Positions 32,911 through 42,024 of a stretch of DNA of 64,000 nt are shown here, piece after piece. This stretch comes from Candidatus Zhuqueibacterota bacterium (GTDB lineage: Bacteria > Zhuqueibacterota > Zhuqueibacteria > Thermofontimicrobiales > Thermofontimicrobiaceae). Numbering within the stretch: the first letter of the stretch is position 1; each line of letters begins with the position of its first letter. Position numbers and translations under genes: made by a program. Below the pieces are notes generated by a model. It was not told where the DNA came from and did no database searches. It worked only from the letters and a program-made list of their open reading frames with translations. The stretch is taken from positions 96,001-160,000 of the forward strand of contig JBMOPW010000032.1 in assembly GCA_049322915.1 (NCBI GenBank), read 5' to 3'.

Positions 32911-33723
32911 GTGGTGAATCACAACATTCCAGAAATCGGGGCATTTCGCCGGCGAACCGACAAGAATTCGTGCCTGGCGATGGAGTTGGAACTTATCAGC
33001 GTCGAAAGGGCCGATACGCTGATGCAGCAACTGGCCGAACTTCGGCAGGCCGATCTGGTTCCGGATATGGCGCTGATTCTCGCCCATCCAGCTACTCTGG
33101 CTGTTGGCGCGCGGAAGTTGCAGCCGCAGGATCTGCTCCGGCCGCTCGAATTTTTTCAATCCCGGGGAATTGGCTTGATTCAATCGATTCGAGGTGGTGG
33201 TTTGACCTATCACTGGCCGGGCCAGATTGTCTGCTACCCGGTGATGAAGCTGGCGCCGCAGGAGCAGAATATTGCCATGTACGTGTATCGGCTGGAGGAG
33301 GTTGGTCTTCGGACTTTGAGAGAATTCGGCATTGAGGCAAGTCGCAAACGGGAGAAAGCGGCGCAGATTGGTCTGTGGCTTGGCAATCGGAAAATTGCGT
33401 CGATGGGGATTCATGTCTCGCGCTGGGTGACGAGCTATGGATTTGCATTGAATGTGAGCGGAAATGCTGAGGCAGCGGATTTTATTCGCCCCTGCGGTCT
33501 CGATGGTGTGAAGCTTATTACCATGAGCGAGGTTTTAGGTTACGATCCGGGGCGACGAGCGGTGACGACGTCATTGCTGCGCCAGTTTGAGCAGGTGTTT
33601 GATAGGAAAATCCACGCGATGACGATGAGGAATTTGACCTGGCTGAATCAGGAGAATGCGGACCATGATATATCTTTCAGGAATGCAAATCTCAGTTCGT
33701 CTTTTAGTGAGAGCCTGGATTGA
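32911..33723 (+). CDS. lipB: Lipoyl(octanoyl) transferase
   Basis: RGGGLTYH.PGQIVCYP, RKIASMG, GFALNV, IRPCG; directly upstream of the pdh genes. Start uncertain. Confidence 0.82.
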   Translation: MVNHNIPEIGAFRRRTDKNSCLAMELELISVERADTLMQQLAELRQADLVPDMALILAHPATLAVGARKLQPQDLLRPLEFFQSRGIGLIQSIRGGGLTYHWPGQIVCYPVMKLAPQEQNIAMYVYRLEEVGLRTLREFGIEASRKREKAAQIGLWLGNRKIASMGIHVSRWVTSYGFALNVSGNAEAADFIRPCGLDGVKLITMSEVLGYDPGRRAVTTSLLRQFEQVFDRKIHAMTMRNLTWLNQENADHDISFRNANLSSSFSESLD

Positions 33724-33755
33724 TGTACGTTGAAATAAAAAAAAGAGGAGTCAAT

Positions 33756-34817
33756 ATGAAACCAAAACTGATTCAGATATTGGATGAAAATGGAACTTGC
33801 GATGAAAAAGCAGTCGCCGATTTGACGACCGAAGATATGATCAACATGTATCGGCTGATGAATTTGACGCGAATCTGGAACGATAAAGCGCTGAGCCTGC
33901 AACGCCAGGGACGACTTGGCACGATGGGTTCTGTCCGGGGCCAGGAAGCATCCAACGTGGGCATGGCCTTGCCGCTGCAATCCAATGACTGGTTTGTGCC
34001 GGCGTTCCGGGAATACGGCGCCCTGTTCGCGCTGGGAATTTCGCTGCGGGACCAACTGATGTTTTGGGGCGGCGATGAACGCGGAGCGAGGATTCCGGAA
34101 AACCTCCGGGTGACGCCCACGTCAATCATTGTTGCGTCGCATTTGCCGCATGCTGTGGGCATTGCGCTCGCCGCAAAATTGAAAGGCGAGAAAAGCGTGG
34201 CATTGTCATCATCCGGCGATGGCTCCACTTCGGAAGGCGATTTTCATGAAGCGCTGAATATGGCCGCTGTGTTTAAGGCGCCGGTGGTCTTTGTCATTCA
34301 AAACAACCACTGGGCTATCTCGTTGCCATTCAGCAAACAGACAGCCACAGCGACGATTTCCGAAAAGGCAGCCGCTTACGCCATCGAGGGAGTGCGAGTC
34401 GATGGAAATGATGTGTTTGCAGTGTACACGACAGTGAAAAAATATGTCGAATTGGCCAGAAAAAATCACACGCCGGCATTGATCGAGCTGGTGACGTATC
34501 GAATGGGCGACCATACGACTGCCGATGACGCCACGAGGTATCGCGCGCCGGAGGCGCTGGCCGAATGGGAGAAAAAGGACCCCATCGACCGCTTGAAAAT
34601 TTATTTGATGAACAGTCGCGGCTGGACTGAAGAGAACGATAAAAAACTCATCGAGCAGTGCGCGCAGGAAGTGGATCAAGCGGTGAAAGAGTATGAGGCC
34701 ATGGAGCCAGCCGATCCTGCGGACATGTTCAAATATATTTATAAAGATATGCCCTGGCATTTGAAAGAAGAGATGGAAGAAGTGAGAGAATTGAATCGGA
34801 AAGGAGGGGTGAAATAA
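33756..34817 (+). CDS. pdhA: Pyruvate/2-oxoacid dehydrogenase E1 alpha
   Basis: LQRQGR, GQEA, GDGSTSEGDFHEALN..QNN, YRMGDHTTADD. Confidence 0.88.
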   Translation: MKPKLIQILDENGTCDEKAVADLTTEDMINMYRLMNLTRIWNDKALSLQRQGRLGTMGSVRGQEASNVGMALPLQSNDWFVPAFREYGALFALGISLRDQLMFWGGDERGARIPENLRVTPTSIIVASHLPHAVGIALAAKLKGEKSVALSSSGDGSTSEGDFHEALNMAAVFKAPVVFVIQNNHWAISLPFSKQTATATISEKAAAYAIEGVRVDGNDVFAVYTTVKKYVELARKNHTPALIELVTYRMGDHTTADDATRYRAPEALAEWEKKDPIDRLKIYLMNSRGWTEENDKKLIEQCAQEVDQAVKEYEAMEPADPADMFKYIYKDMPWHLKEEMEEVRELNRKGGVK

Positions 34818-35794
34818 TGGCAAGAAAATCAATGGTTCAGGCGATCAATGAAGCATTATTTCAGAAAATGGAAGACGACAAGACCGTCGTTGTGCTGGGA
34901 GAAGACGTTGGCGTTGACGGCGGCGTATTCCGGGTGACCCAGGGGCTGATCGAAAAATTCGGTCCCGAGCGCGTGATGGACACGCCATTGGCGGAATCAT
35001 CGATCATGGGCGCCAGCGTGGGCATGGCCATCAATGGCCTGAAACCTGTCGTTGAAATTCAGTTCATGGGATTCATCTACCAGTCGTTCGATCAGGTACT
35101 GGGGCATGTTGCCAGATACCGGCACCGGAGTCAGGGGCGATATGGGATGTCGCTGGTCGTGCGCGCTCCGTATGGGGCCGGCGTTCGGGCGCTGGAGCAT
35201 CATTCCGAAAGCACGGAAGCCAATTTCGCGCATTTGCCCGGTCTGAAAGTGGTCATTCCTTCCAATCCGGTGGACGCCAAGGGCCTGCTCATTTCGGCGA
35301 TTGAAGACCCGGATCCGGTGATTTTCCTGGAGCCAAAACGACTGTACCGCTTGAAAAAAGTTGAAGTCCCGGACGAAATGTACCGGACGCCCATCGGCGT
35401 GGCCGATATTCCGCGCGAGGGGAAAGATATCACGCTCATCGGTTGGGGGGGCATGATGCCAATTTGTCTCGATGCGGCGGAACACGTCAGCAAAGAAGGC
35501 GTGGACGCCGAAGTGATCGACCTGCGGACGATTGTGCCGTTTGACATTCAGAAAATCACAGCCTCGGTTAAAAAGACCGGCCGGCTGATCATTGTTCAGG
35601 AAGCACCGCGCTCGTTTGGTGTGGCTGCTGAGCTGGCCGCTCAGGTCGGGGAGAGAAGCCTGCTCCACTTGTTGGCGCCAGTTCGCCGCGTCACCGGCTA
35701 CGACATCATCCCGCCATTGTCAAAATTGGAAGATTACAATTATCCCAATGTGGAACGAGTCGTACAGGCCATTCATAAAACTATGGAGTTTTGA
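34817..35794 (+). CDS. pdhB: Pyruvate/2-oxoacid dehydrogenase E1 beta
   Basis: GEDVG..GGVFR, DTPLAE, EIQF, EHHSES, DPVIFLEPK. Confidence 0.88.
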   Translation: MARKSMVQAINEALFQKMEDDKTVVVLGEDVGVDGGVFRVTQGLIEKFGPERVMDTPLAESSIMGASVGMAINGLKPVVEIQFMGFIYQSFDQVLGHVARYRHRSQGRYGMSLVVRAPYGAGVRALEHHSESTEANFAHLPGLKVVIPSNPVDAKGLLISAIEDPDPVIFLEPKRLYRLKKVEVPDEMYRTPIGVADIPREGKDITLIGWGGMMPICLDAAEHVSKEGVDAEVIDLRTIVPFDIQKITASVKKTGRLIIVQEAPRSFGVAAELAAQVGERSLLHLLAPVRRVTGYDIIPPLSKLEDYNYPNVERVVQAIHKTMEF

Positions 35795-35795
35795 C

Positions 35796-37064
35796 ATGAG
35801 ATATGTATTTCGATTACCGGACGTCGGTGAAGGCATTCATGAAGCGGAAATAATAAGCTACGAAGCGAAGATCGGGGATGTGGTCAAAGCCGATCAGACA
35901 ATCATAAAAATTGAGACGGACAAGGCGGTGGTGACGCTGCCTTCTCCGGTGGACGGCAGGATATTAGAAATCCCACGCAATCCAGGGGACGTCATCGCTG
36001 TGGGGGAGCCGCTCATCATTCTGGATTCAGTGCAGGCCGGAGAGGAAATAACGGCAAAACCGGAAGCGTCCGTCCCGGAAGAGGGGCATGCGCCGGCCGT
36101 GAAAATTGTGCGGGAACCGGTCCTGACCGATAAGCCAGCGACCGCGCGCCGTGCACTGGCGACGCCGCACACCCGATATCTGGCGCGGGAATTGGGCGTC
36201 GATATCAACACCGTGGCCGGTTCCGGGCCAGGCGGGCGCATTACCGACGATGATGTCCGGCGCGCCGTCAAACAGTCGCCGGCGCCAGGTCCGAAGATTC
36301 CGCGGGCAGCGGCGGTCACCCATGAACCGTCGACGCTTGGGTTCGATTTTGAGAAGTATGGACATGTCCGCCGGGAGCCGTTGAAAGGCATTCGCAAGCG
36401 AATCGCTGAAGTCATGGTCCGATCGTACTCGACCATCCCCCATGTGTCGCACACGGACGAAGTGGATGTCACCGATCTGTTCGAGGTGCTGAAAAGGCAG
36501 AAATCAATGGCGGAGCAGCGGGGTGTGAAATTGACCATCACTGCTTTTATCGCAAAAGCTGTGGTATCAGCGCTGCAGGCGTTTCCCGAGGTCAATAGCT
36601 CGCTGGATGAAGAGAGCGGCGATCTGGTGTACAAGGATTACTACCATCTTGGCATCGCAACGGACACCGACCAGGGATTGATGGTGCCGGTGGTGAAAAA
36701 TGCAGACACCAGGAGCATCCTTCAAATCGCCGAGGCGATTCAAAAACTGGCGACTCAGGCGCGCAACCGCGAGATCGACCTGGAAGACCTCCGCGGCGGA
36801 ACGTTCACCATCACTAACCCCGGTGGCATTGGCGGCATTCACGCAACGCCGATCATCCAGCATCCCCAGGTGGCTATTCTGGGCGTGCTGGCGGCGCGAA
36901 AGAAGCCGGTGGTCAAAGACGATCAGATTGTCATCCGCACCATGATGCCGTTGGTCGTTTCTTTCGACCATCGCATTCTGGACGGCGCAGTCGTGGCGCG
37001 TTTCCTCAATCACATCATCCATCTGCTGGAAGATCCTATGCGCATGCTGGTGGATGTTATTTGA
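35796..37064 (+). CDS. pdhC: Dihydrolipoamide acyltransferase E2
   Basis: LPDVGEG, ETDKA lipoyl site, GSGPGGRI, FDHRILDG; start 35796 (track ORF extends into pdhB). Confidence 0.88.
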   Translation: MRYVFRLPDVGEGIHEAEIISYEAKIGDVVKADQTIIKIETDKAVVTLPSPVDGRILEIPRNPGDVIAVGEPLIILDSVQAGEEITAKPEASVPEEGHAPAVKIVREPVLTDKPATARRALATPHTRYLARELGVDINTVAGSGPGGRITDDDVRRAVKQSPAPGPKIPRAAAVTHEPSTLGFDFEKYGHVRREPLKGIRKRIAEVMVRSYSTIPHVSHTDEVDVTDLFEVLKRQKSMAEQRGVKLTITAFIAKAVVSALQAFPEVNSSLDEESGDLVYKDYYHLGIATDTDQGLMVPVVKNADTRSILQIAEAIQKLATQARNREIDLEDLRGGTFTITNPGGIGGIHATPIIQHPQVAILGVLAARKKPVVKDDQIVIRTMMPLVVSFDHRILDGAVVARFLNHIIHLLEDPMRMLVDVI

Positions 37065-37157
37065 AACCAGGCACGCCTGAAACGGGTATCAATAGCGATT
37101 CATGCCAGTCCCCAATGAAACAGAATGGGGCTGATTTGAAAAAAAAAAAATTGCTCA

Positions 37158-37214
37158 GCCACGACGTCTCAAAGGCACGATGAATAAAATGACCTCTTCG
37201 TGTAGCGTTGTGGC
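37158..37214. repeat. Degenerate copy of the 8-nt periodic inverted-repeat element
   Basis: GCCACGACGTCTCAAAGGCACGATGA ... TCTTCGTGTAGCGTTGTGGC. Confidence 0.5.
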
Positions 37215-37357
37215 AAGACGACAAGCCTGAATGGCAACGAAAATTCTCTTTAACCCGGAACCTTGAAACCTGGAGCCTGATCAGTTTCAAAACAAAAAAT
37301 CAGGTAACAGCGACGGCATCGGTGGATTTTCAGTAAAAATTTTGTGAAATCAATTGT

Positions 37358-37753
37358 ATGGTGCTCATCGATTTAAGAAATAAATTACAGACAAGCTCCC
37401 TTCGATACATGGCGGGCGGCCTCATTGCCCTCGTGCTCTTTTTGAGCACGGGTCATGATTTATTCCATAATCACCAGCCCGATTTCGAGAATCACGAAGA
37501 CTGCCCGGTGTATCAATTCCTCGTTGTGCTGGGCTCCGTCGGAATCATCGGCGCGCTCGTTCTGCAGCATTTTCTGAATCGAGTCACCATTTTAGAGTTT
37601 CATTCCGACGCGATTATTTATGGCGTCGAGCGGTTAACCCCGGTTATCCGCGGCCCTCCGGATACAGCGACTGTTGTTTTTTTGAATGAACATGCGCTTA
37701 AGTGTTTCAGAACGAATAACTATCCGGAGGTGTTTTATGAAAGTAAGTCTTAA
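37358..37753 (+). CDS. Putative regulatory leader protein (DUF2946-like architecture) with His-rich segment and RGPP motif
   Basis: Hydrophobic segment, HDLFHNHQPDFENHEDCP, second hydrophobic segment, IRGPP (codons 37646-37660); upstream of lipoprotein and TBDR. Start may be 37409. Confidence 0.7.
   Translation: MVLIDLRNKLQTSSLRYMAGGLIALVLFLSTGHDLFHNHQPDFENHEDCPVYQFLVVLGSVGIIGALVLQHFLNRVTILEFHSDAIIYGVERLTPVIRGPPDTATVVFLNEHALKCFRTNNYPEVFYESKS
37655..37730 (+). promoter_or_regulatory. Anti-Shine-Dalgarno pairing between leader Pro-Pro codons and the lipoprotein RBS
   Basis: CCTCCGGATA (37655-64) is the exact reverse complement of TATCCGGAGG (37721-30), which contains the GGAGG 6 nt before ATG 37737. 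Confidence 0.65.
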
Positions 37754-38198
37754 ATTTCTTGTTATTGCGCTTGCATTATCGGCATTAATTTTTGGTTGTG
37801 ATAAAGACAATCCAGTTGACGATGATACTCACAGTGAACATGCCGAGGCCGTTGGCCTTGTCATTACGCAGGATAGCAGTGAAATTGTTCGGTACGAAAG
37901 CGGCACGGTCACGGGTAAAATTACCGTGAAAGTCGGTGCAGAAACGCCGTTGCTTTTTGTTCAGTTCATCGATGAACATGACGGCGACTTATTTACGCCG
38001 GACATTGAACACCATTCGCTGGCTTTCACCGTCGCCAATGTCGCCATTGCCGAGGTCATCCAGAATGCTAAAGATGGTTTGGGCAAATTTTACATTCAGG
38101 GGAAATCAGCCGGCTCTACGACGATTGAAATAAAAATCCTGCATGAAGACCATGCAGATTTTGTTTCAGCGCATATCCCGGTTGAGGTGACATTATAA
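37737..38198 (+). CDS. His-rich lipoprotein, probable metal-binding partner of the TBDR
   Basis: Lipobox LIFG-C, DDDTHSEHAEA, DEHDG, EHHS, LHEDHADF; beta-rich body. Confidence 0.78.
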   Translation: MKVSLKFLVIALALSALIFGCDKDNPVDDDTHSEHAEAVGLVITQDSSEIVRYESGTVTGKITVKVGAETPLLFVQFIDEHDGDLFTPDIEHHSLAFTVANVAIAEVIQNAKDGLGKFYIQGKSAGSTTIEIKILHEDHADFVSAHIPVEVTL

Positions 38199-38215
38199 TT
38201 CACTGAGTCGATCAT

Positions 38216-38252
38216 GGTTCTCCCTCATTCCGAATCCGGAATGGGGGAGAAC
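38216..38252 (+). other. Intercistronic hairpin
   Basis: GTTCTCCCTCATTCC / GGAATGGGGGAGAAC stem between lipoprotein and TBDR, no U tract. Confidence 0.6.
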
Positions 38253-38274
38253 TGTACTGCAAGGAGTATCGTCA

Positions 38275-40509
38275 ATGAAATCGTTTTTTTATCGCATCGC
38301 ACTGATTCTCAGTGTGATGATGATATGCCGGATCGGCTTCGCGATGGCATCTGAAGAACATTCCCCCGGAACGGGTGTGTTTGCAGGTCAGGTTATCGAT
38401 TCAGAAACCGGTGAACCGGTCGGGTTTGTCTATTTGTTGATTGAAGAGATTCATTTCTGGCAGCGGGTTGGAAGCGACGGTGTGTTTCGTTTTGAAAATA
38501 TACCCGCCGGCATTCATGCGGTAAAAACCTATCGGTTGGGATATAAAGAAGCTGTGGAGCAGGTCGCCATCGTAGAGGGGAAGGTTACAAACAAAACGTT
38601 CCGACTGGCGTTGGCGCCCATTCTGATTGGCGAGGTCATTGTTTCGGCGCACCGGGTGCATGGCGATTCCACCCTGGAAAATCCGGATATTGTCGTTGCC
38701 GATCGCAAGCTCAGGCAAAATCTGGGCATGACCATAGCCAAGACGCTTGAAAATGAACCGGGTCTGGATAAAATCTGTATGGGACCGGCTCCGGCGCGAC
38801 CGGTGCTGCGCGGTCTGGCTGGCGACCGGCTGCTGCTTCTCGAAGATGGCGAGCGGACCGGCGATCTTTCAGCGACGTCAGCGGATCACGCTGTATCCAT
38901 TGATCCCATGACCACCGAACGCATCGAAGTGATACGCGGGCCGGAAGCCATGATCTATGGCTCCAATGTCATGGCCGGCGTGATCAATGTCCAGCGGGAA
39001 TCGATACCGCGCGTGCGGCCGGAGAAAATAACCGGTTCGGTCACGTACCACGGAGAGAGCGTCACGAATGGAAGCGCTGGCGCGTTGGAATTGCGCGCGC
39101 CGGTCGGGCCAATGGCCATGCGATGGGATGCGAGTGTGCGCTCGGCCGGCACTGTGCAAACGCCGGTTGGCCCACTGCAAAACACGGAAATTCAAACGCT
39201 GAACAGCTCAATCGGGTTGAGTCTGGTTCGAAGCTGGGGTCATGCCGGAGTTGCCGGCGGTTGGTATGATTCGGAGTACGGCATTCCCCCTGATCCGATT
39301 GCCGGACACCCGAGCGGTGTGGATATTGACATGCTGCGGCAGCATGTAGCGACAGAAGGTCTGTTCAATGTCCCTTCGTCCATGATTCGGCACGTATACG
39401 TGAAGCATCAGTACTCCCGCTACCAGCACCAGGAGATTGAAGCATCGGGCATCATCGGCATGGAATTCGGGGTGGTGACGCATCATGCCACAGCGATTTT
39501 GCACTTCTGCGAATGCGGCCCATTGTACAATGCGCGAATCGGCATCTGGGGTGAATCGCGCGATTATGCGTCAGGCGGGCTCACGTTCACGCCGGATACC
39601 AGAGAGTCAGCCGTGGCCGTTTATCTGTACGATGAACTCATCCGCGGCCGCTGGTCATTCAATGGCGCGATTCGGGCGGACGGCAAAACAGTGCGTCCCG
39701 AAGCGAGCTATGTGACGCCCCATGTCGGCCACATCCGAACGCGCGACTTCGCCGGTATCTCCGGGGCGGTTTCCGGACACTACCATGTGAAACCGGACTT
39801 GATGCTGGGCGCTTCGGTCATCCGAACGTTTCGCGCTCCCGGGGTGGAGGAATTATTCTCGGAAGGGCCGCATCTGGCAGCCTATTCCTATGAAGTCGGC
39901 AATGCCGACCTGGACGAGGAGACCGGCATTGGATTCGAGCTCTTTGGCGAATACGAGTCCGGTCACGGGAAAATTCGGGCAGCAGTCTTTCGGAATGAAT
40001 TGCAGAATTACATTTTTCCGAGAAACACCGGAGAACGAAGCTGGCGTCGCGCCGATTTATTTCAATACCAGTACAGCGGATTCCATGCGCTGATGACCGG
40101 TTACGAGGTGTCGCTGGATTGGGCGCCGGCGAATTGGCTGTCGTTTTCAGCTCAGGTTCAGTATGTGAAAGGGCAATTGTTAGAAGAAGACCAGCCTATT
40201 CCCCGGATGCCGCCACTATCCGGCAAGGTGGAAATGCGCTACCATCGCGGGCCATTATCCATCATTGTGGATTCCAAAGGCGCTGACAGACAAAACAGGT
40301 TGGATCAGTTCGAACTGCCGACGGAGGGGTATCTCATTCAGGATACGACCGTGCAATATTTATTGCCAAAGGGGAAGCTGTTGCATACCCTTTCGCTGAC
40401 ACTGGAAAATATCGGGAATGCAGAATACCGCAGGCATTTGAATCGCGTCAAGGAAATCATGCCCGAGCCTGGGCGCAATGTTCGGCTCCTGTACAAGGTT
40501 TTCTTTTGA
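38275..40509 (+). CDS. TonB-dependent receptor with N-terminal carboxypeptidase-regulatory-like domain (probable metal uptake)
   Basis: GQVIDSETGEP, EVIVSA, plug RPVLRGL..DHAVSIDP..IEVIRGP..YGSN..GVINV, FRAP..EELFSEGPH, C-terminal PGRNVRLLYKVFF. Confidence 0.92.
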   Translation: MKSFFYRIALILSVMMICRIGFAMASEEHSPGTGVFAGQVIDSETGEPVGFVYLLIEEIHFWQRVGSDGVFRFENIPAGIHAVKTYRLGYKEAVEQVAIVEGKVTNKTFRLALAPILIGEVIVSAHRVHGDSTLENPDIVVADRKLRQNLGMTIAKTLENEPGLDKICMGPAPARPVLRGLAGDRLLLLEDGERTGDLSATSADHAVSIDPMTTERIEVIRGPEAMIYGSNVMAGVINVQRESIPRVRPEKITGSVTYHGESVTNGSAGALELRAPVGPMAMRWDASVRSAGTVQTPVGPLQNTEIQTLNSSIGLSLVRSWGHAGVAGGWYDSEYGIPPDPIAGHPSGVDIDMLRQHVATEGLFNVPSSMIRHVYVKHQYSRYQHQEIEASGIIGMEFGVVTHHATAILHFCECGPLYNARIGIWGESRDYASGGLTFTPDTRESAVAVYLYDELIRGRWSFNGAIRADGKTVRPEASYVTPHVGHIRTRDFAGISGAVSGHYHVKPDLMLGASVIRTFRAPGVEELFSEGPHLAAYSYEVGNADLDEETGIGFELFGEYESGHGKIRAAVFRNELQNYIFPRNTGERSWRRADLFQYQYSGFHALMTGYEVSLDWAPANWLSFSAQVQYVKGQLLEEDQPIPRMPPLSGKVEMRYHRGPLSIIVDSKGADRQNRLDQFELPTEGYLIQDTTVQYLLPKGKLLHTLSLTLENIGNAEYRRHLNRVKEIMPEPGRNVRLLYKVFF

Positions 40510-40596: not shown

Positions 40597-42024
40597 ATGG
40601 TAGTCGGAGATTTTACGCAGAAAGTGGACACGTTGGTGATTGGCGCCGGACCCGGCGGCTATGTCGCTGCCATTCGGGCGGCGCAATTGGGCCAGGAAGT
40701 CACGCTTGTAGAAAAAGATCACCTGGGAGGTGTCTGTCTCAACTGGGGATGCATCCCTTCCAAAGCGATGATTGAAGTGTCCGGGCTGAAACAGCGCATT
40801 GCCCGCGCAGCGGACATGGGGCTGATGACCGGCGAAGTTACGGTCGATCTGGCCAAACTGCATCACTGGAAAGATGATGTTGTTCTCAGGCTCAGAAAAG
40901 GAATTGAAGGCTTGCTCTCTAAAAATGGCGTGGACGTTGTTCATGGAAATGCGAGCTTCACGGATCCCGGTCACATTCTGGTGGATACCCGGGAGGGGTT
41001 GCAGCGCTTCGAATTCAAAAACGTCGTCATCGCCACCGGCTCGCATCCTATTCAACTCCCCGGCGTTCCGTTTGACGGCAGGGTTATCATCGATTCTTCG
41101 GACGCGCTGTCTTTGGCGGAAGTGCCGAAAAGAATGGTCGTCATTGGCGCAGGTTCGGTGGGAATTGAACTGGGAACTGTCTATCGAAAATTGGGCGCGG
41201 ACGTCACGATTCTGGAGAACCAGACTGCATTGCTGATGATGCTCGAACCGGAGGTGTCCCGAATTCTTGAGAAGTCGCTGAAGAAAATCGGAATCGATGT
41301 GTTGTTGGGCAGCGAGTTGAAATCGGTGCAGGTGAAAAATGATCGGGCCGAGCTCCATTATGTTCAAAATGGCGCGGCCAAAATTCTCGAAGCCGATAAG
41401 GTGCTGGTTGCAGTGGGCCGGCGCCCCAATACAGCCACACTCGGTCTCGGCAAATTGGGACTGACAACCGATGACCGCGGCTTCATCCCAGTGAACAGCC
41501 GGCTGGAGACCGGCGTGAAGGGCGTGTACGCCATTGGCGATGCGGTTGCCGGCCTCATGTTGGCGCATCGCGCATCGCACATGGGGAAAATCGCAGCAGA
41601 GGCTATTTCGAACCGACTTGCAGAGTTCGACAACCTGGCCATACCCGGCGTCATTTTCAGCGACCCTGAAATTGCGACGGTGGGAATGACTCAGGCTGAT
41701 GCGGAGAACCAGGGCTACACCGTGAAAGCCGGCGCATTTCCGTTCCGAGCCCTGGGCCGTGCAATGACCATCGGCGAGACCGAAGGGCTGACGAAAGTCG
41801 TCTCGGACGGGCAGACCGGAACTGTGCTGGGTGTGCATATCATCGGTCCGCACGCATCGGATCTGATTGCTGAAGGCGCGCTTGCCGTGGAATCGGCTTC
41901 CCACGTCGATGACTTGATGCTGACCATTCACGCGCATCCCACATTGACCGAAGGAGTCGGCGAAGCCGCCGAAGCCGTGGAAAATAAGGCGATCCATATT
42001 TTTAATTCGCCGATGAAACAATGA
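40597..42024 (+). CDS. lpdA: Dihydrolipoamide dehydrogenase E3
   Basis: GAGPGGY, GGVCLNWGCIPSK, HAHPTLTE. Confidence 0.95.
   Translation: MVVGDFTQKVDTLVIGAGPGGYVAAIRAAQLGQEVTLVEKDHLGGVCLNWGCIPSKAMIEVSGLKQRIARAADMGLMTGEVTVDLAKLHHWKDDVVLRLRKGIEGLLSKNGVDVVHGNASFTDPGHILVDTREGLQRFEFKNVVIATGSHPIQLPGVPFDGRVIIDSSDALSLAEVPKRMVVIGAGSVGIELGTVYRKLGADVTILENQTALLMMLEPEVSRILEKSLKKIGIDVLLGSELKSVQVKNDRAELHYVQNGAAKILEADKVLVAVGRRPNTATLGLGKLGLTTDDRGFIPVNSRLETGVKGVYAIGDAVAGLMLAHRASHMGKIAAEAISNRLAEFDNLAIPGVIFSDPEIATVGMTQADAENQGYTVKAGAFPFRALGRAMTIGETEGLTKVVSDGQTGTVLGVHIIGPHASDLIAEGALAVESASHVDDLMLTIHAHPTLTEGVGEAAEAVENKAIHIFNSPMKQ

Follow-up and report, generated by a model that had tools for sequence, protein, structure and literature searches.

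The window analysed here, a 64,000-nucleotide (nt) stretch of contig JBMOPW010000032.1 from a Candidatus Zhuqueibacterota bacterium, contains a leader open reading frame (ORF) followed by a lipoprotein gene and a gene for a TonB-dependent receptor (Table 1). An earlier note, made from the letters alone, had read the leader as a metal-sensing arrest peptide: a ribosome stalled at its Arg-Gly-Pro-Pro (RGPP) motif would mask the RNA that pairs with the Shine-Dalgarno (SD) sequence of the lipoprotein gene, and metal binding with membrane insertion would release the stall. Comparison of homologues supports this reading. Judged by its sequence, the leader is the window copy of an unnamed family of two-helix peptides of ~100 amino acids (aa), and it is from such comparisons that we infer the stalling, its release by metal or insertion, and the metal that is sensed.

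Table 1. Features of the leader, lipoprotein and receptor region (positions within the window; MFE, minimum free energy).
Feature	Position	Strand	Basis
Leader ORF, 131 codons	37358..37753	+	Sequence, ORF list, homologues
First hydrophobic helix, residues ~14–36; N-terminal flank K/R-rich, predicted cytoplasmic	37397..37465	+	Hydropathy, model, charge bias
Putative metal-site loop, H33 to P50; acidic, almost without K/R, predicted periplasmic	37454..37507	+	Alignments, charge
Second hydrophobic helix, residues ~49–73	37502..37576	+	Hydropathy, model
Candidate arrest motif, Arg98-Gly-Pro-Pro101	37649..37660	+	Sequence, homologue conservation
5′ arm (anti-SD) of the closing helix	37652..37664	+	MFE fold, duplex tests
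Inner hairpin/loop between the arms, including the T7 run 37677–83	37673..37720	+	Sequence, fold
3′ arm with the SD GGAGG (37726–30) of the lipoprotein gene	37721..37734	+	Sequence, fold
Lipoprotein gene; lipobox Cys21, product begins MKVSLKFLVIALALSALIFGC	37737..38198	+	ORF list, homologues
TonB-dependent receptor; N-terminal CarboxypepD_reg domain	38275..40509	+	Domain scans

The leader peptide family and its C-terminal proline motif

The sequence and the ORF list confirmed the layout first described for the leader, a 131-aa ORF with two hydrophobic segments and RGPP at 37649–60. Hydropathy in 15-residue windows places HDLFHNHQPDFENHEDCP between hydrophobic segments at residues 14–36 and 49–73, and the sensor has, as had been remarked, one Cys, in the context C49-P-V-Y, rather than the CXXC motif of CruR (Bp2923). 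CruR is a DUF2946/PF11162 protein encoded by an upstream open reading frame (uORF) in Bordetella pertussis, with CXXC at residues 90–93 and RAPP at residues 139–142, and stands before the receptor BfrG (Roy et al. 2022, PMC9426467). For the leader we favour the start at 37358 over Met18, the N-terminal pattern M-x-x-I-x-x-R-x-N-I-Q-T being kept in homologues. Its stop codon occupies 37751–53, 14 nt beyond the lipoprotein ATG, and the leader therefore overlaps the lipoprotein gene by 17 nt.

A word-index search returned two close relatives only, among them P0002, which shares 81% identity and has its stop nine residues beyond RGPP, and a six-frame search of 41 related genomes gave matches in 11. 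In an alignment of eight sequences H37, H39, D42, H46, D48, C49, P50, R98, P100 and P101 were invariant. Among 143 aligned members C49, P100 and P101 were invariant and H37, H39 and R98 were at least 90% conserved; the His cluster, whose conservation had been put up for checking, is carried by the members of the family. As a non-circular test of the proline motif, one genome per species was searched with a DNA pattern that encodes nothing but the His cluster (HNHx[PA]Dx3HxDCP). This gave 37 loci, in KSB1, Neomarinimicrobiota, Caldithrix, Ignavibacteriales/Melioribacteraceae, 'Cytophagia', Leptospirales, Spirochaetota, Omnitrophota and Acidobacteriota metagenome-assembled genomes. All 36 complete ORFs (that of L030 is truncated by a contig end) ended in [RK][AGS]PP, as R[AG]PP in 29, RSPP in four and KAPP in three.

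Searching 1.84 billion cluster representatives with a profile extended the family to 273 members at E ≤ 1e-3, 50 of them at E ≤ 1e-10. When motifs and tails were counted in the best 150 of the 273, [RK][AGS]PP was present in 145 (RAPP 92, RGPP 23, RSPP 21, KAPP 8, KSPP 1), and one of the five representatives without it has HAPP. The earlier note had made conservation of RGPP a test of its reading, and in both sets of sequences the motif is conserved. The tail beyond Pro-Pro has a median length of 3 residues and does not exceed 8 in 133 of the 145 representatives. The sensor consensus of the family is HxHxxDxxxHxDC(P), with a single Cys at this place in 125 of the 150, CxxC in 21 and no motif in 4, and the distance from Cys to Arg is 47–50 residues in 67 of the 68 representatives with the strict motif. 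Within the phylum the family profile matches 46 of 167 genomes (31 of the 105 of good quality).

No Pfam family matched the window leader at E ≤ 1, and no Pfam or NCBIfam model covering the leader family was found. PF11162 had no match in the 167 genomes of the phylum, with 0 in the leader's own genome, and gave 7 weak matches among the 143 relatives (best E 0.0012); by these sequence tests the window protein does not appear to be a member of PF11162. A further candidate locus, L046, came from a metagenome scan with the window protein and was rejected, since the match, 16 residues long, arose by chance and falls in an unrelated gene.

The two hydrophobic segments are family features as well: of 141 representatives, 138 have one ahead of the metal motif and 127 have one between the Cys and the Arg. 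In the window protein, residues 14–36 behind the K/R-rich N-terminus correspond to an N-terminal export signal or N-in transmembrane segment. The N-terminal segment has a mean of 2.98 K+R and 0.3 D+E, the His/Cys loop 0.56 K+R and 3.24 D+E, and the linker from helix 2 to the Arg 3.4 K+R and 1.52 D+E. Since such charge bias predicts membrane orientation (the positive-inside rule), the leader is predicted to be N-in, loop-out and C-in. An AlphaFold model built on a 143-row alignment is a helical hairpin (helices at residues 13–31 and 50–92) with a mean predicted local distance difference test (pLDDT) score of 82, which exceeds 90 at residues 11–80; the RGPP region is less confident.

Helices and loop so well conserved and so confidently modelled would also suit an ordinary small membrane subunit that binds metal for uptake, in which RGPP and the complementarity to the SD have no regulatory role. 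Across the family, however, the arrest motif is placed at the extreme C-terminus and keeps a constant spacing to the Cys, and RGPP and RAPP are among the tetrapeptides most strongly avoided in proteomes and cause arrest in several contexts, according to Fujiwara et al. 2025 (PMC12992588). Together with the RNA pairing described below, these points make a mere subunit a very improbable explanation.

RNA pairing between the Pro-Pro codons and the next Shine-Dalgarno sequence

At the Pro-Pro codons, CCTCCGGATA (37655–64) is the exact 10-nt reverse complement of TATCCGGAGG (37721–30), in which GGAGG (37726–30) lies 6 nt ahead of the lipoprotein ATG (37737). This complement, on which the proposal had been founded, is present as stated and seldom arises by chance: a perfect run of at least 10 nt between the 33-nt and 28-nt windows was seen in 6 of 20000 shuffles, and in 4 of 9123 window pairs of the same geometry across the 64 kb. 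Folding 37630–37760, the check that had been suggested, gave −38.4 kcal/mol (z −3.2; 2 of 200 shuffles equally good), with 37652–64 paired to 37721–34 in the MFE structure. The 5′ arm begins 3 nt before the presumed P-site codon and, given the usual reach of a ribosome, would lie in the footprint of one stalled at the motif.

To compare loci, we assigned downstream starts by a rule that took the first long ORF and after that the best SD, and calculated RNAduplex energies between a window at the stall site (−3 to +30 from the Arg codon) and a ribosome binding site (RBS) window (−25 to +3). The spacing from Arg codon to start is 72–139 nt in 26 loci, with 88 nt in the window, and 195–646 nt in the other 11. 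In the 26 short-spacing loci, pairing with the locus's own partner reached −15.7 kcal/mol, versus −10.2 kcal/mol with the partners of others. When near-duplicates were removed, the remaining 23 short-spacing loci gave −15.31 kcal/mol versus a permutation mean of −10.93 kcal/mol (sd 0.57). For two control windows in the same mRNAs, one placed upstream of the stall site by 45 nt and the other directly behind the start codon, the energies were −8.0 and −8.8 kcal/mol. Counted from the Arg codon, pairing is most frequent at +7 to +19, a stretch that begins at the second base of the presumed P-site Pro codon and extends about three codons further; counted from the start codon, it peaks at −16 to −7. 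The sequences of the arms vary by locus: the window has CCTCCGGATA, L013 has CCTCCATTG, L029 has CCCTTTCAATT and L032 has CTCCTTTTTTGT. The pairing is locus-specific and therefore co-varying in the short-spacing class. The closing helix forms part of the MFE fold of the whole region in 14 of 20 short-spacing loci; in one more, L035, it is present in the centroid structure and not in the MFE fold.

Pro-Pro codons read as CCUCC are anti-SD by nature, complementing GGAGG, and mismatched pairs of windows reach −10 to −11 kcal/mol, as would be compatible with an ordinary uptake subunit whose codons pair to no effect. The pairing nevertheless extends beyond CCUCC and belongs to the individual locus: none of 20000 permutations was as low as the matched value, and perfect runs of at least 8 nt occur in 9 of the 23 matched pairs versus 6.5% of 506 mismatched pairs. 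These results argue against a pairing without effect.

A promoter and terminator scan found nothing 5′ of the leader or at the helix, and an Rfam search of 36900–38400 at E ≤ 1 returned two chance-level matches only, outside the leader.

Downstream genes and the probable metal

In the window lipoprotein, the lipobox Cys and H136-x-D138-H139 are invariant in the alignment of homologues and H35 is nearly so. The protein is modelled as an immunoglobulin (Ig)-like beta-sandwich (pLDDT 86.5), for which a fold search returned generic Ig-like domains only, plus weak PcoC and PmoB-type matches. The best NCBIfam model for the window receptor is ZnuD (7.6e-42), at 143.8 bits versus a cut-off of 950; in sequence the receptor thus seems to resemble ZnuD at a level that does not reach the cut-off and does not imply equivalence.

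Downstream contexts were taken from the 36 complete loci, for which 55 of 79 listed downstream proteins were scanned, the remainder being near-duplicates, one protein containing N and some third or fourth genes; all matches to the NCBIfam models ZnuD, AztC and AztD were below the curated cut-offs. A TonB-dependent receptor follows the leader directly in 17 of the 36 loci, with ExbB/ExbD behind it in L014 and L027, and a homologue of the window lipoprotein and then a TonB-dependent receptor follow in nine. Six loci have an unnamed outer-membrane protein and then a ZnuA-family binding protein and an ABC-3 permease, and in all six the best model for the binding protein is the zinc protein AztC. 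The intervening outer-membrane-looking proteins of these loci (L021, L023, L032, L034, L040 and L043) are 356–458 aa long and have a signal peptide, without a Pfam or NCBIfam match. The remaining four loci encode a 522-aa lipoprotein with the domain of the window lipoprotein as its N-terminus; in the one that was scanned, that of L025, the C-terminal part matches the zinc chaperone AztD, a propeller, at 7.6e-13. These ~522-aa lipoproteins (L012, L025, L028 and L041) begin 220–646 nt from the leader, without matched SD pairing. For the receptor of L013 ZnuD was again the best model (3e-53). From gene context zinc thus appears to be the best-supported metal. The single Cys and His cluster had suggested a metal other than copper, and the ZnuA/AztC-like, AztD-like and ZnuD-like contexts fit that expectation, pointing to zinc among the alternatives.

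A different sensor is found in the Omnitrophota loci L014, L027 and L045, whose leaders combine CPSC or CPAC, that is CxxC, with RGPP ahead of a receptor and then ExbB/ExbD. The best model for the receptor of L014, the one scanned of the three, is TonB-copper (4.8e-46). The sensor type, CxxC or single Cys, may track the cargo metal.

The nature of the downstream genes also bears on the polarity of the proposed switch. In CutF of Rhodobacter capsulatus, which has a Cu-binding motif, a C-terminal proline motif and a stem-loop shielding an RBS, copper prolongs stalling during export and so melts the stem-loop before cutO (Ozturk et al. 2023, PMC9973294; preprint 10.1101/2025.02.05.636593). The RNA design of the window is equal to this one, and metal could likewise prolong the stall and turn the genes on, in which case the operon would handle an excess of metal. 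Downstream of the leaders, however, stand the parts of uptake systems (TonB-dependent receptors, ExbB/ExbD, ZnuA/ABC-3 and an AztD-like chaperone) and not of efflux or detoxification, and we give this reversed polarity little credence beside relief of the arrest by metal.

No Zur-like box common to the 130 nt upstream of 38 leaders was seen by eye, no motif search having been made.

The leader, lipoprotein and receptor genes lie between the E1alpha, E1beta and E2 genes (33720–37064) and the gene for the E3 dihydrolipoyl dehydrogenase (40597–42024), and the module looks like an insertion into a 2-oxoacid dehydrogenase cluster. Between the E2 gene and the leader is an intergenic repeat of ~80–95 nt (37195–37290), which has 40 matches of 75–100% identity dispersed through its own genome and draws many extra high-depth contigs in sequencing run X1. 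Candidate natures for this repeat are a REP (repetitive extragenic palindromic)- or MITE (miniature inverted-repeat transposable element)-like element or a carrier of a terminator or promoter.

Proposed mechanism and relation to known arrest peptides

We think it probable that the leader joins a CruR-like arrest, relieved by metal, to a CutF-like helix that shields the SD, and in this way controls a zinc-type uptake operon, probably as a reporter of zinc. By analogy with CruR, whose arrest in vitro was shown by toeprinting to leave one Pro codon in the P site and the other in the A site (PMC12992588), the ribosome would arrest with Pro100 (37655–57) in the P site and Pro101 (37658–60) in the A site. 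The footprint of the stalled ribosome would cover the 5′ arm (37652–64) and free the SD at 37726–30, so that the lipoprotein, and the receptor with it, would be translated. The exit tunnel of the ribosome usually accommodates 30–40 residues. As the loop is 50–67 residues from the peptidyl-transferase centre when the ribosome stalls at Pro100/Pro101, it should at that moment be just outside the tunnel, with helix 2 still emerging. When metal is plentiful, its binding by the loop, or the insertion of the hairpin that binding permits, would pull on the nascent chain and release the arrest, after which the helix would re-form and translation of the uptake genes would fall.

Several observations weigh against this reading. 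On the side of the RNA, the 11 long-spacing loci have no matched pairing (own −10.4, others −9.9 kcal/mol); the covariation of anti-SD and SD that had been anticipated thus holds for the 23 short-spacing loci (0 of 20000 permutations) and fails for these 11, and masking of the SD is not a universal output in the family. Within the short-spacing class the closing helix is absent from the fold in five of 20 loci (L010, L015, L020, L021 and L023), and RNAalifold found no consensus pairs in a MAFFT alignment of 20 loci. Because that alignment does not bring the 3′ arms into register (the window, for example, is one column off L042), we count the RNAalifold outcome as a failed method, not as support, and take the duplex and permutation tests as the evidence for pairing. 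No SD-like sequence was seen in the window ahead of the leader ATG. On the side of the metal, the generic fold of the lipoprotein yields no metal assignment; the ZnuD, AztC and AztD matches are far below their cut-offs, with zinc read from gene context alone; and the ZnuA family also includes manganese and iron binders. Two further points, the long tail of the window leader and a variant at the lipoprotein start, are taken up after the output of the switch.

Since the long-spacer loci are without SD pairing, another output must exist there, and that of CruR is at hand: copper relieves its arrest and permits Rho-dependent termination over a 162-bp intergenic region (PMC9426467). The same arrest peptide could act on transcription in the window too, with the stalled ribosome blocking Rho or an attenuator and the SD pairing secondary, as the spacers of 195–646 nt in 11 of the 37 loci would allow. 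The spacing in the window is only 88 nt, however, and its helix includes the SD; the pairing is locus-specific in 23 loci; and no terminator-like site was found in 37650–37740, nor a U tract behind the 3′ arm in homologues. A transcriptional output is in our estimation unlikely, and we retain masking of the SD as the output of the arrest in the window.

The tail of the window leader runs 30 codons past RGPP, over the SD and the ATG, and the caution that the earlier note had attached to it was well placed, as so long a tail is atypical for the family. Tails of more than 16 residues occur in four of the 145 representatives. Overlap of the leader with the next start is found in four of 37 sequences (the 36 loci and the window), namely L019, L026, L037 and the window, and is therefore not a conserved feature. 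The tails of L019, L026 and L037 read through the regulatory RNA, their conserved N-L-K-G corresponding to AAUUUGAAAGG of the SD region. Because the window tail spans SD and ATG, ribosomes that do not stall would open the helix and might re-initiate; those that escape the arrest would translate across the SD and terminate 14 nt beyond the ATG, so that some coupled expression independent of the stall is possible. The long tail could thus blunt the switch in the window.

A contig of 153 nt from a second study (run X2, a near-identical strain, depth 2.6), which covers 37619–37770, departs from the window at three points: an A is inserted behind 37691, position 37710 reads A for G, and position 37737 reads C for A. 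With the inserted A the leader would end at 37699–701, ahead of the 3′ arm and 13 residues beyond Pro-Pro. The C in place of the A of the lipoprotein ATG, if real, would put the start assignment in question, which is the second of the two points above. At a depth of 2.6 any of these differences may be an error, or else strain variation. No difference from the window is seen in the source-like run X1, and the T7 run is present in both runs that cover the place. No RNA run containing the stretch was listed, a blank that speaks neither for nor against the reading. In the tail, T7 (37677–37683) is followed by a TGA in the +1 frame at 37687–89, about where P0002 stops.

We put forward more tentatively a wider claim, that a nascent chain reporting zinc gates outer-membrane and ABC (ATP-binding cassette) zinc importers in a large family with members in Calditrichota-like, KSB1, Ignavibacteriales, Marinimicrobia-like, Leptospirales and Omnitrophota genomes, and that its loop can be retuned on one scaffold, H3D2C being zinc-type and CxxC copper-type. 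No zinc-linked arrest peptide was found in the literature searched, and, to our knowledge, metal-responsive arrest peptides have so far been shown for copper only (CruR, CutF). If our reading is true, zinc would join the metals sensed by arrest peptides, and the principle would be general; the family would offer a natural series for how the choice of metal is encoded in a nascent chain, and a post-transcriptional layer would stand beside Zur-type repressors in little-studied phyla. Its ~270 natural variants, with a rigid ruler of 47–50 residues between sensor and stall site, would lend themselves to dissecting how a ligand bound outside the tunnel signals to the peptidyl-transferase centre, and the co-varying anti-SD helix opens the output to direct testing.

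The comparison with CruR (CXXC and RAPP, DUF2946) and CutF drawn in the earlier note agrees with the accounts in PMC9426467, PMC9973294 and the preprint 10.1101/2025.02.05.636593. Like CruR, the window leader would be a small exported protein ahead of a TonB-dependent receptor, in which metal is proposed to relieve the arrest and so shut an uptake operon. The distance from metal motif to RAPP-type motif is fixed in both, 46 residues in CruR versus 47–50 here, and five residues added between the motifs of CruR greatly diminished copper's effect (PMC9426467). The two differ in the sensor, HxHxxDxxxHxDC with one Cys versus CXXC; in having two hydrophobic helices versus a signal peptide; in an apparent masking of the SD versus Rho-dependent termination; and in a zinc-type context versus copper. 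They also differ in family, there being no PF11162 match for the window protein at E ≤ 1.

With CutF the window leader would share the melting, by a stall at a C-terminal proline motif, of a stem-loop that shields an RBS, and a sensor exposed to the periplasm during co-translational export. In PMC9973294, 5,334 CutF-like proteins are sorted into 29 clusters whose sites consist of Cys, of His or of both; TonB-like proteins rank with the commonest neighbours, clusters with His only adjoin HupE/UreJ, and the word "zinc" is absent from the main text. The two-helix family described here may or may not fall among these 29 clusters. CutF differs in that it controls a detoxifying oxidase and that copper enhances its stalling, whereas uptake genes follow the leader here.

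In SecM of Escherichia coli, arrest at a RAGP-type motif unfolds a helix in which the next gene's SD is concealed, and a pulling force on the nascent chain ends the arrest. SecM differs from the window leader in reporting secretion activity, without a metal site. ApdA and ApdP are arrest peptides reportedly described by Sakiyama in 2021 and Morici in 2024. With these two and a set of Streptomyces lividans peptides the leader family has in common an R-[AG]-P-P core close to the C-terminal end, in a small protein of membrane or secretory type upstream of a regulated gene, although 30 residues follow Pro-Pro in the window copy; those studied, unlike it, monitor Sec/YidC or are actinobacterial. 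For SLIV_16130 and SLIV_18480 of S. lividans, which have Cys/His sites, metal sensing has been proposed, and the text of PMC12992588 available to us describes no His3-Asp2-Cys two-helix family and no link to zinc. By the same account, arrest is most robust with RGPP among the RAPP-like motifs, and RSPP is partly permissive; the arrest of ApdA and ApdP (RAPP) is not released by elongation factor P (EF-P), RAPP/RGPP arrest being called EF-P-refractory; uORFs with RAPP or RGPP are over-represented before TonB-dependent receptors; and the 'TonB-related' class is described as consisting mostly of signal-peptide proteins (PMC12992588). The regulatory principle has thus already been published (PMC9426467, PMC9973294, PMC12992588), and it is in the sensor and in the probable metal that the leader described here differs.

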